From: Octopus vulgaris
Lineage: Eukaryota
NCBI GenBank assembly: GCA_951406725.2
Contig: OX597821.1
Span: 75,516,001 to 75,580,000 of the forward strand
DNA length: 64,000 bases
Direction: 5' to 3'
Shown here piece after piece: positions 54,740 through 58,800 of this stretch (position 1 is its first letter; every line of letters begins with the position of its first letter). The position numbers and the translations under genes are program-made. The notes below the pieces were generated by a model. That model saw nothing but the letters and a program-made list of their open reading frames with translations, had not been told where the DNA came from and searched no databases.

Positions 54740-55610
54740 CAGGTCGTCATCGACTTACAACCTACTCGACTTACGACCCACTCGACTTACGACCGATCGA
54801 CTTTACGACAATTGTCGCGCCATAATCTCTCTCTATATAAAGCTGAAGTTGTCTATGTGTGGCAGGTTTGGTAGCCTTCAACTAACACTATCTCCTCCGA
54901 GATCCTGCGGTGCAAGTTGACCAAAATTGAGAGTATGATAGAAGAAGGCTTGCTCTTCATTCCGTAGAAGATAAAATTCAAATCGGACCATGTGAAGACC
55001 AAATATTATTTACATGAAAAAGTGCTTTTTTTTCTATGAAAATCCCTATTTTTTACAAAATTTTTGACTGCTGTGTCGCCATTTTTCGGTGTATTTCATA
55101 CAGAAAAATGTTCACTTAAAGAGAATAACAGGCTATATAATGTAAACATTTTACTTTTCAAAAATTCCAATTCTAAAGGGCCGAAACAAACTCGAGCAAC
55201 GCTGGGCGATACTGCTAGTAAATAATAAAGCAATAATAAAGAGTCCATTTGAAATCAAATGGGTTTTAGAAATTAACCCGTCTACGGATGATGTCAGCTA
55301 ACAAACGCTTCCCCTAGGTTTGGCTATCGTTCGCCGCTGTGGCTATCCCAAGTGTTGGATGACTATCCTGTCGCGGACACATCGAGGCAACCTCGCATTT
55401 GTTTATAAAACAACTGCTTGAAACTACGAAAGTTTTGACTAACGTCAGTGTAATAGTATAATACAGAATGCTGTGTGAGACTTTTATTTGAGAATGTACC
55501 TTAAGAATGTAAAAATATAAAACAAAGCTATCTAGACCTATAGGCCGACTTACGACCAAATCGATTTATGACCGGTCAGTCGGAACCAATTATGGTCGTA
55601 AGTCGACCTG
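54740..55610. mobile_element. Tigger/pogo-like (Tc1/mariner) MITE with TA target duplication, interrupted by a Helitron
   Basis: ta|CAGGTCGTCATCGACTTACAACC ... GGTCGTAAGTCGACCTG|ta; repeated CGACTTACGACC subterminal motifs. Confidence 0.75.
54826..55218 (+). mobile_element. Non-autonomous Helitron, subfamily 2
   Basis: A|TC...CTCGAGCAACGCTGGGCGATACTGCTAG|T; homologous to 13732-14129. Confidence 0.85.
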
Positions 55611-56815
55611 TATATCTGTTAGTTTAAATGTAAGATTTTCTACTGTAGAAAGTGCGAATGCTATGTATTGAAATCTAAATTACTTTTGCTCAATTTCGCT
55701 TAGTTTTTGGAAAAATTTAGAGGCAACGCAGATCCGATCGCTCCCTGAACCAACACTTCGGACATACTCCAGCTGATCTTTCACATTTTCTTTTTAATCT
55801 CACTATTTAGAAATTTACTCGCTTCCATTAAAAGAAACGTTCCCTCTGAAATATATACACAACTCGTTGATTTTGTTGTGTCTCTGAAAGCAACCAAATT
55901 TCTTCTTAAGTACATTGTATCCAACATTTTGCTCTTAACTATTAATTTTCATATTTGAGGGCGATTTTGAGCTCTATTCAATCCGTAGTCATGGATGTAG
56001 TGTCAAAATGTTTACCTCACGATCACGTGGTTTCGACTTAATCCAGTAGAGTACGATGTTGTGTTGGTGCCATTTACCATAGATTTGTCTGTGAATTTTG
56101 GTAGTGGAAAACTGTACAGAAAGGCCCTTGCATATGAATGTGTATACGTGTGTGTGTGTGTGTGTGTATGTGTCTGTGTGTGTCTGTGTGTGTCTGTGTG
56201 TGTGTGTTTGTGTGTGTGTGTGTGCGTTTGTGCATGTGTCGTGTATGTGATGGCGCGTGTTTGAAAATATGGGTGTGGCTGAATTCACGTATGTGCGCGT
56301 GTGAACATATATACATAACTGCGAGAATGCTACCTGTAAGGCGGTGCGACAAACAAAACACCTTGTGGCATTTATTCGACCGACATCAGAAATATGTTGT
56401 TCATTGTTTTCTATTAGTAACAAATGTACAGTTCACAAAAATTGATATGAAATAATAATTTAAAAATTCCTTGAGTGTTTGATAGATCGTAGTGTATGAG
56501 GGGGGAGTATATGGTGGGTGGATTTATTGTGTATCGATTATTGTTCTCTCTTGATTTCGATCATAAGTATTTACTTGTTCAATCAGCTAAACCACCTGCT
56601 CTTAATTAGCGTCTAAATCGTTGAAAATTCCTCAAATACCTTCATCCTTATCATTTTTCCTTTACATAAAACAGTGTGTGATAGACTGGATTTTTGAATT
56701 TCCGGGACAATCCGGCGAACTTCTACACTTTTCTATATTTAAGAGATGAGGAATTATGTACATTATTTACATTATTTACATTTGACGGATATTTGTCCTC
56801 ATCTTGTTTTTCGTT

Positions 56816-56861
56816 AACACAACGTTTCGGCTGATATACCCTCCAGCCTTCATCAGGTGTC
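56816..56861 (-). ncRNA. Intact minimal type-I hammerhead ribozyme
   Basis: GACAC-CTGATGA-A-GGCTG gagggtatat CAGCC-GAAA-CG-TT-GTGTT: helix I GACAC/GUGUU, 5-bp helix II, palindromic AACGUU in place of helix III. Confidence 0.8.
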
Positions 56862-56956
56862 TTGGGGAAATTTCGAACCTGAGTTCTCATTCCCAAGGTA
56901 TTTTTCGATATTATTATTATTATTATTATTAATATTATTATTATTATTATTATTAA

Positions 56957-57009
<53 letters not shown>

Positions 57010-57076
57010 TCACTGCCTGAATCGAACTCGGAATCTTGGTGTTAGTAGTCCCGCGCTCTTAACCATTATGCCCACT

Positions 57077-57149
57077 GGCATATAGCGTAGTGGTGAAGAG
57101 CGCAGGCTACTAACCCCAAGATTCCGAGTTCGATTCCAGGCAGTAACCT
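57077..57149 (+). promoter_or_regulatory. tRNA-like Pol III internal promoter head (pseudo-tRNA, CTACTAA loop)
   Basis: A box TAGCGTAGTGG, B box GAGTTCGATTCC; acceptor stem does not pair well. Confidence 0.75.
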
Positions 57150-57190
57150 GAATAATAATAATAATAATAATAATAGTAATAGTAATAATA

Positions 57191-57389
57191 CTGTACTGAG
57201 AAGAGCATTATTGCTGTGAAAACAACATCCATTCATGAATTTATGTATTCATTAATTTTTTAAATACATATTTTACCTGTGAATTTGCGTGTGTAATCTG
57301 GGGATTGCATACAATGAGCTTCTCTGCCCTAGGTGTACGGAAAACACTCGGCGAGAAACGGAAGAAAATTTGAAGAAAGAGGGAAAAAA

Positions 57390-57392
<3 letters not shown>
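57191..57392 (+). mobile_element. Probable 3' fragment of an R4/Dong-like LINE inserted into the (AAT)n linker
   Basis: Flanked by (AAT)n on both sides; starts VLRRALLL*, like ILRKTLSIQ* at the end of the 9912 LINE. Confidence 0.45.
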
Positions 57393-57451
<59 letters not shown>

Positions 57452-57502
57452 TCATCGAAAAATACCTTGGGAATGAGAACTCAGGTTCGAAATTTGCCCC
57501 AA

Positions 57503-57548
57503 GACACCTGATGAAGGCTGGAGGGTATATCAGCCGAAACGTTCTGTT
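57503..57548 (+). ncRNA. Minimal type-I hammerhead ribozyme (one helix I mismatch)
   Basis: gacac-CTGATGA-a-GGCTG gagggtatat CAGCC-GAAA-CG-TT-ctgtt. Confidence 0.75.
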
Positions 57549-58800
57549 AACGAAAAACAAGATGAGAACAAATATCCGTCAAATGTAAATAAAGTAAGTA
57601 ATGTTCTACACATTTTCTCGCATATTCGGTATCGCGCACGCGAGATGGGCGAACTTATACTAAAAGACACCCAAGATGCTACGTTTTACGCTCAACAAAA
57701 AGGAAACTCGTGATGGTAGCAGGACCGTATAGTTAAGAAGATTAGTGGATGTAATAATTGGTGCATGTGCGGGATGTTGTCTGTAATATATGGTGGCCGT
57801 AGAGGTTAAGTTATTGTAATATGTTATGAGTGTGTTGTATAAATACTGTGATATTTGGTGGGCGTTTCGTATTCTGGGACAGCAGTAGAGAAAGCAGATG
57901 TTAAAGGAGTGGGAAAAGAAGTTTCTGAACCTGAATAAACAAAGGTATTTTTGTTGATATTCAGGTGAAGGGATTGACTGCACGGCGAAACCAGCATATA
58001 TGCAGATACTGTCATTCAGTGAGGAGTTTGAATTTGTAATTTATTTTGAAGGGTAAAGATGCACTGTGAGGTGATAGATTTGTCAAGAAGTTGAATGAGA
58101 TAAGTTGTTTGCATGTATACAAGGTGCAAAATGAGCGGTCTACGGTTCAGTCGGAGTGATGGATAAGAAAGAGAATGACGTAAAATTACCCAGCCATGTT
58201 GGTATAATTGTTTTCTATCTTAGGACGTGTTGAGGATATCGTTGCAATATGCAGCTACCATAAAGATAAAAAACCCTGCCAAGAACCCAGTCGAATCGCT
58301 TACATGAAAAGAACTCCTTAAAAAGCTTCCATAGAACAAGTGTTTTCCCCAAACGAAATACTGCTCACGTGATAATTCTAATCGCCGCATACTACAGGGC
58401 TAAATTATACAATGCAATACCACGCATATAACAACAATAATGAAATAACATGCACACACAAATACACACAGGTGAAACATCTAGAACATCAGGTATTTGA
58501 TAAATCTATATGGTTTATCAAAACCTACATTTTTCAAATACATGTCACTGGCCACTCTGAGTTGTTTTTCTGAGTTTGTTTGTGAGCATCTTTCTATTAT
58601 CCAAAGGGTGTTTCTTTTTCAACTAAATATTTACACAGTTATACGGAATAATGTATAGCTTTATCTACTTCGAGTTCGACCGGTAAAAAACGCATATATA
58701 TGCCAACTGAATGGTAGCAGGGTCAATGTAAATATTTTACTCCGTGAATTTCTTGACTATATTGAATAAGTTGAACTGTCCTTTATGTCAGAAGATCATG

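Follow-up and report, generated by a model that had tools for sequence, protein, structure and literature searches.

Within 64,000 nucleotides of the Octopus vulgaris genome (contig OX597821.1, positions 75,516,001–75,580,000 of the forward strand; hereafter the window) an inverted repeat at positions 56721–57611 combines tRNA-like heads, (AAT)n linkers and hammerhead ribozyme motifs, and the question arises what kind of mobile element leaves such a structure. A preliminary description of this DNA had proposed a separate, non-coding SINE (short interspersed element) or retrozyme which borrows the enzyme of a Penelope-like element (PLE). We come to a different conclusion: the element is almost certainly a head-to-head pair of pseudo-long terminal repeats (pLTRs) of a decayed PLE with a reverse transcriptase (RT) and a GIY-YIG endonuclease (EN). 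Inverted pLTRs, a one-sided tail and the minimal hammerhead are known already; the variant part is the tRNA-derived start of the pLTR.

The parent element

A tblastn comparison of Neptune-type PLEs with 81 loci of the family placed RT fragments immediately 5′ of the head in two of them (L004 and L172), and a genome search with the upstream DNA of these two loci returned 2,896 candidates. In 11 of the 12 long copies retrieved the head lies directly 3′ of the stop codon of an open reading frame (ORF) and a short untranslated region (UTR); the twelfth has its head deleted and retains the tail. The ORF contains an RT domain (Pfam RVT_1, E 2.4e-10), and with the position of the head this supports the suspected mobilisation of the unit by a Penelope RT/GIY-YIG enzyme. 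The parent is laid out as head, (AAT)n, ATG, hammerhead and tail, followed by the ORF with RT and GIY-YIG, a short UTR and the same repeat once more.

The near-full-length copy L332 starts at the tRNA-like head and continues in frame through the hammerhead into the ORF. In three near-full-length copies (L332–L334) the tail runs in frame into the ORF and the 5′ pLTR is in direct orientation, and 10 of 100 listed extension ends go on, as judged by eye, into the next ORF codons. In the window the left arm is open from an ATG at 56890 (− strand) through the hammerhead to the codons NSSSLKYR. Because of this open arm, the junctions between extension and ORF and the frame of L332, the unit is a pLTR and its ‘tail’ the N-terminus of the ORF. 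Comparison with the termini of the autonomous PLE found the same head, linker, hammerhead and tail in the parent pLTR. The supposed borrower is therefore the autonomous family's own pLTR, as the long copies and L332 demonstrate, and it is not purely non-coding, since its ATG opens a frame which, in long copies, leads on into the PLE ORF.

Most of the 611 homologues carry PF00078/PF26215, and one bears the name GIY-YIG. The C-terminal domain can be aligned to a protein of this name, with the positions of CxC, two His, Arg and Glu preserved; the Pfam GIY-YIG profile gave no match to the parent ORF, where the motif reads YKG. The zinc-finger linker between RT and EN is absent from the alignment of the parent family and present in the other PLEs of the genome. 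This linker marks Neptune and Nematis elements and is missing in the Penelope/Poseidon clade (PMC8557442). Judged by these domain features, the family appears to fit the endonuclease-bearing (EN+) PLEs of the Penelope/Poseidon clade. Both share the order of RT and GIY-YIG and the first ORF codons within the pLTR (Arkhipova et al. 2013, PMC3846280; Craig et al. 2021, PMC8557442; Cervera & de la Pena 2014, PMC4209133), an inverted 5′-truncated partner, a ~30-bp tail at one end, an 8–10-bp target duplication, a junction palindrome and the minimal type I hammerhead. The rotifer element Pen2a likewise contains the N-terminal part of its ORF in the pLTR (PMC3846280).

The genome-wide family check gave at least 20,270 matches to a 26-nt tail pattern (up to 2 mismatches) and none in the reversed control. 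A copy is present in 6 of 40 evenly spaced 10-kb samples, which corresponds to roughly 40,000 loci with a wide error. For 115 tails, a sample skewed to well-preserved copies, the divergence from the majority sequence has a median of 6%. The nearest named protein to the parent ORF, 77% identical, is from Octopus sinensis. Contigs from four organisms cover the ORF end and the tail alike, which concerns presence only and not start, end or level, and the viral contigs searched contained no relatives. Sister PLE families (P0127, P0137, P0001–P0016) that are 60–69% identical and have near-complete ORFs of 768–806 aa occur in ENA and Logan assemblies.

Neptune-type PLEs of 781 and 775 aa, found by a GIY-YIG search, were considered as partners and rejected, as they have no tail in common with the window element and sit in (TA)n. 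These elements (L113–L126, e.g. C16:20834800-20843800 and C14:47993000-48001000) are abundant and very young: at least 138 of 144 scored copies tie at the top score, being 100% identical over 267 aa. An ORF of up to 479 aa lies upstream in the 781-aa family, and the 775-aa family has a variant hammerhead-like core which begins CCGAAGA.

Layout of the window copy

The features are, in window coordinates:

56721–56728 (+): left target-site duplication TTCTACAC, identical to the 8-mer at 57604–57611
56729–56756 (−): PLE ‘tail’ extension of ~30 bp, left arm only, with the N-terminal ORF codons NSSSLKYR
56757–56815 (−): 3′ part of the left pLTR, in frame, with 9-bp AATGTAAAT repeats within the GATGAGGA/TCCTCATC stem
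56816–56861 (−): left minimal type I hammerhead, core 56821–56856
56862–56908 (−): left hairpin region with the in-frame ATG at 56890, the likely ORF start of full-length copies
56909–57005 (−): left (AAT)n linker
57006–57073 (−): left tRNA-derived head, B-box 57019–57027 intact, A-box partly deleted
57070–57079 (no strand): junction palindrome GCCC-AC-(G>T)GGC, 5′ boundary at −6 throughout the family
57076–57150 (+): right tRNA-derived head, A-box 57083–57093 and B-box 57128–57137 at tRNA spacing
57151–57190 (+): 5′ portion of the right (AAT)n linker
57191–57391 (+): secondary insertion of a long interspersed element (LINE) of the restriction-like endonuclease (RLE) type, last codons and 3′ UTR, T6 at 57256–57261
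57392–57451 (+): (AAT)n, LINE tail fused with the linker
57452–57603 (+): 3′ part of the right pLTR, ATG 57473, hammerhead core 57508–57543, without extension
57604–57611 (+): right target-site duplication TTCTACAC

Two back-to-back units with tRNA-like head, (AAT)n, the hairpin CTTGGGAA..TTCCCCAAG (present in the minimum free energy (MFE) fold of the unit) and hammerhead had been recognized before, and we see them in both arms. The arms (56760–56978 against 57385–57604) are 93–95% complementary, and the heads abut head-to-head at 57070–57079. To this extent the twins are equal; the right unit is split by the 200-bp LINE fragment, overlooked in the preliminary description, and is thus non-contiguous, and of the A- and B-boxes ascribed to both heads the right pair and the left B-box stand while the left A-box is damaged. 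Similarly, the bounded AT-rich tail assigned to each unit holds for the left arm, and the right arm ends short of the GATGAGGA..TCCTCATC stem. In the right arm the frame from ATG 57473 is disrupted by a 1-nt insertion, and a G>C change adjoining the predicted cleavage site breaks the first pair of helix I. The window copy is a decayed insertion. Divergent transcription into two matching ribozyme RNAs, as formerly imagined, is unlikely at this copy because the T6 run separates the right head from its ribozyme and part of the left A-box is lost.

The LINE fragment belongs to a family with 1,836 genome candidates, of which 40 were scored at 95–97% identity with the window copy excluded. At other loci it is the terminus of an ORF that contains a PD..D..K endonuclease motif, and (AAT)n comes next. 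From the features of the family, the insert is probably R4/Dong-like. Dong-R4 LINEs have been recorded for an octopus in a 2026 octopus repeat annotation. This RLE-type LINE, which ends in (AAT)n, entered the (AAT)n linker of the PLE family more than once (57191–57391 and L181), and because of these repeated insertions the linker acts as a landing site.

Insertion signature and twin junctions

EN+ PLEs have pLTRs in direct or inverted orientation with a 30–40-bp tail at one end and a short target duplication; for rotifer PLEs an inverted pLTR, a 31-bp tail on one side, an 8–10-bp duplication and a junction palindrome have been described (PMC3846280). The window copy, with its 8-bp target duplication and an extension of ~30 bp on one arm, bears this standard PLE insertion signature. 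The same holds for the family. Two inverted pairs were set aside; in the 54 whose 3′ ends could both be scored, the extension is on exactly one arm in 46, on neither in 8 and on both in none, and 29 of the 46 one-sided pairs have a flank word of at least 8 nt common to both sides (6% for mismatched flanks).

The exact 20-nt palindromic junction occurs at 494 loci. The 29 exact-junction loci examined consist mostly of one full unit and a fold-back of ~9–24 nt, followed by a truncated partner or by flanking DNA. The twin is thus a known inverted-pLTR product and not a dedicated two-unit design. As the orientation of the AC/GT centre is random with respect to the extension-bearing arm (6:6 among 12 fully scorable pairs), simple fold-back cannot account for every twin, and two independently primed cDNAs joined at the palindrome would seem to fit best. 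Some unpaired copies start with the GT and not the AC form of the palindrome (L003:1385-1410, L159 and among the listed 5′ ends), a pattern suggestive of a flipped loop or of transcription out of a twin's inverted arm. A telomerase-like reiteration of the 9-bp repeat was also considered and found no clear support, the lengths being mostly 18 or 27 nt (57 of 65).

The window harbors a second, older inverted pair of the same PLE family at 37552–38122, with the right head mostly deleted, the extension on the right arm and decayed hammerheads.

The hammerhead motif

The hammerhead cores lie at 56821–56856 (−) and 57508–57543 (+). The left one consists of helix I GACAC/GUGUU, the core CUGAUGA-A, helix II GGCUG/CAGCC, GAAA and the palindromic ACGU, and its cleavage is predicted at GUU, after GAAACGUU. 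It thereby shows CUGANGA with an extra base, a G–C closed helix II, GAAA, a palindromic helix III and NUH, the traits by which Cervera & de la Pena 2014 (PMC4209133) characterize the minimal type I hammerhead of PLEs. The same core is found 140–500 nt beyond the matched ORF end in 18 of 42 related PLE loci (30–44% protein identity, partly redundant, each with at least 250 nt of downstream sequence).

A cross-family alignment comprised 12 sequences, of which two are the window arms and 10 are distinct relatives. In it 95% of cells are paired and both sides vary in 10 of 11 pairs, a level reached by none of 500 shuffles; in slid controls pairing drops to 21–42%. The relatives were chosen by a scan that requires pairing, and the signal is partly built in. 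Covariation within the family was left unused because the copies are neutral decay products of one source. These data uphold the earlier assignment as a minimal type I hammerhead. A search with Rfam had been recommended as well; in three modes, including gathering threshold and E-value, it gave no hammerhead call at the window element. The MFE fold of the monomer mispairs the hammerhead core. A suspected separate hammerhead family with another helix II resolved into 23 matches which are all mutated members of the window PLE family.

In the Schistosoma elements Sm-alpha and Sj-alpha, which are short, dispersed and SINE-like (PMC6765202), a hammerhead follows a Pol III promoter, as it follows the putative promoter of the octopus unit, and animal non-LTR retrozymes are short, hammerhead-bearing, derived from pLTRs and mobilised by PLEs (PMC7229834; bioRxiv 10.64898/2026.07.22.740005). 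One might therefore regard the octopus unit as a retrozyme or an Sm-alpha-like tandem repeat amplified via circular RNAs. Retrozymes, in contrast, are arranged in tandem, each array holding two or more directly oriented ribozymes, and have no tRNA head in the accessible reports; Sm-alpha and Sj-alpha are tandem with canonical active hammerheads, and the part of the source available mentions no autonomous parent that shares their promoter, whereas the octopus unit serves a coding PLE as terminal repeat. Neither the window nor the family loci examined contain the unit in head-to-tail arrays, and the copies span the cleavage site uncut, have PLE-type target duplications and contain the minimal, not the canonical, hammerhead. 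We consider this explanation most improbable.

The tRNA-derived head and its putative promoter function

The preliminary description is also right in the origin of the head. With the A-box at +8 and the B-box at +53 it has tRNA geometry, and it is colinear with host tRNAs (29 distinct tRNAs of 9 types and 6 amino acids) with 46–49 identities over ~74 nt and z scores of 6–8; tRNA-Thr, -Arg and -Ala tie as the nearest match. Both boxes are retained at tRNA spacing and the T-stem and acceptor stem have decayed. At default settings ARAGORN called no tRNA at the window element; at a threshold of 85% it called one in 7 of 41 heads, 6 of them with the anticodon ACT.

From the sequence this tRNA-derived A/B-box at the start of the pLTR is the unusual feature of the family. 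A/B boxes were found in none of the 3′ regions of the 42 related PLE loci, and among the Penelope/Poseidon PLEs as described in the accessible literature only the octopus pLTR opens with such boxes and an (AAT)n linker. Described pLTR promoters of PLEs are of RNA polymerase II (Pol II) type, with TATA/initiator (Inr) motifs or TATA-less, in contrast to the tRNA-type boxes of the octopus family. In a full-text literature search we found no description of a PLE with a tRNA-derived promoter in the pLTR, as far as the texts were accessible. The 2026 octopus repeat annotation, in the part available, describes no such structure among its 190 Penelope-like families and numerous unclassified SINEs; the family may well be catalogued already in the octopus repeat library.

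Promoter function of the head is pointed to by the step in 5′ ends, the start of L332 and the lack of TTTT. Exact 17-mers number 878 at −140, 1,287 at −22, 4,018 at +1, 6,502 at +32 and 10,066 in the tail, counts which are loosely calibrated (match rates of 1–8 out of 12 in long copies). Among 62 heads, 26 of the 36 still extending terminate between +3 and −10, with an end rate of 0.07–0.12 per nt versus ~0.002 per nt upstream. One hundred listed intact 5′ ends, classified by eye and with some fold-back loci entered on both strands, comprise 30 that run into the parent UTR, 40 that fold back and 30 that join other sequence. Over 2,581 nt the sense strand is free of TTTT (4.5 on average in shuffles, P 0.006), the sequence tested being the majority sequence supplemented by two single copies with ~27 codons outside. 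Other PLEs, unlike it, contain TTTT: in the same genome there are 9 and 8 in two Neptune-type ORFs whose T content is similar, and 54 occur in 11,972 nt of 14 relatives. We suggest that RNA polymerase III (Pol III) probably drives at least the short RNAs of the family; that it drives the whole coding element we advance only tentatively.

Several points weigh against this reading and the insertion scheme connected to it. Only one of three inspected near-full-length 5′ ends, that of L332, retained the head, and no intact ORF was found among 150 scored candidates, the longest listed open frame being 465 aa; the family therefore looks inactive now. TT and TTT runs are also rare in the family, and the TTTT test conditional on this falls short of significance (P 0.10). 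One TTTT each is present in 5 of 12 single copies. The calibration of the 17-mer counts and the composition of the tested sequence belong here as well, as does the random AC/GT orientation. Metazoan minimal hammerheads cut poorly in vitro and weakly even as dimers (PMC4209133). Finally, 5′-end palindromes of inverted pLTRs are known in PLEs with Pol II-type promoter motifs (PMC3846280), so that a sharp 5′ boundary need not mean Pol III.

Some of these points lead to a reading in which the locus is ordinary inverted-pLTR debris of a PLE transcribed by Pol II, the tRNA-like piece is an inert passenger (e.g. an old SINE), and the palindrome GCCC-AC-GGGC, as a hotspot of self-priming, gives rise to the −6 boundary. 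Junction palindromes and self-priming are on record for inverted pLTRs (PMC3846280), Drosophila Penelope has a TATA-less internal promoter within its regulatory region, fold-backs make up 40 of the 100 listed 5′ ends, and the non-significant T-run test is in line with it. On the contrary, the ends that join other sequence stop at −6 with little or no fold-back, the spacing of the retained A and B boxes is still that of a tRNA despite the decay of the stems, the head is the start of the full-length copy L332, and the sense strand is free of the TTTT which other PLEs contain. We regard this reading as rather unlikely.

Copies which start at the head exceed those which continue upstream about three-fold or more, and SINE-like short RNAs may thus have existed. 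This excess would also be expected of an independent SINE of tRNA origin with an acquired PLE tail, mobilised in trans as a dedicated palindromic twin. Against such a SINE, the autonomous copies bear an identical head, no diagnostic difference between short and long copies was seen at the two sites checked (8 long copies), the junction breakpoints vary and most ‘twins’ are incomplete. An independent SINE is very unlikely. Reportedly, Ohshima & Okada described in 1994 the octopus tRNA SINEs OR1, OR2 and OK. They resemble the heads as tRNA-derived octopus repeats, and OR2 is recorded as a CORE-SINE; by this description the window family could be one of them.

A model for transcription and insertion

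The explanation which we favour overall, a pair of PLE pLTRs with a Pol III start at about −6 and insertion of two cDNAs, is in our view likely. Pol III would start at about −6 (GCCCAC) and could read onward because the sense strand has no TTTT. From the upstream pLTR it would produce a full-length RNA and from any pLTR short SINE-like RNAs. In this way the surplus of head-starting copies would be accounted for. The GIY-YIG endonuclease of the element would cut both target strands, and the RT would prime one cDNA from each target end. One cDNA would end with the extension and the other would stop earlier through microhomology in the 9-bp repeats; both would then be joined, often via the palindrome GCCC-AC-GGGC, by fold-back or pairing. 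The LINE piece, as is evident, entered the right linker after this insertion. By prediction the monomeric minimal hammerhead has almost no activity, so that uncut short RNAs would be able to insert; in tandem RNAs it would cut as a dimer. As the ATG lies 5′ of the cut, an intact ORF would exist only on uncut RNA or on a re-ligated circle.

The closest analogues are Sm-alpha of Schistosoma and Cassandra/Helenus. The latter belong, with Ajax, to the TRIMp3 elements, a group of TRIMs (miniature retrotransposons with terminal repeats) which carry in their terminal repeat a Pol III promoter derived from a small RNA, either tRNA or 5S (Kojima 2024, PMC10886601). TRIMp3 are non-autonomous LTR elements, whereas the putative octopus promoter lies in the repeat of an autonomous, ORF-bearing element.

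Other repeats of the window

A large inverted duplication is found at 11250–12950. Here two tails of the PLE family flank a ~1-kb element that has long inverted ends and sits in (AAT)n, and the symmetry reaches past the tails into flanking DNA. The inner element also adjoins (AAT)n in L021, L025, L064, L185 and L334. In addition, a 16-bp tandem repeat resembling CGACTTACGACC is present at 54750–54814 with a related copy 760 bp off at 55546–55577; these are possibly the ends of a DNA transposon.

Implications

It is possible, if somewhat doubtful, that a coding and autonomous PLE of ~2.7 kb is read end to end by Pol III from a captured tRNA promoter on a strand purged of TTTT, with the intact ORF limited to uncut RNA or the re-ligated circle, and that the same promoter gave rise to SINE-like pLTR copies, solo and palindromic, by the tens of thousands; the element would then be its own SINE. 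Autonomous retrotransposons are assumed to require Pol II, and for the autonomous partners of Pol III-driven TRIMs this is argued explicitly (Kojima 2024, PMC10886601). If true, a PLE that has a tRNA promoter together with an ORF free of terminators would be a natural counter-example. It would also support cap-independent or circular-RNA translation in PLEs and would provide one route from a PLE to a SINE-like family. For annotation, tRNA-headed pLTR repeats are easily mislabelled as SINEs. Finally, the tens of thousands of dated insertions allow one to count how PLE ends are primed and joined, be it by one-sided extension, duplication or palindrome.

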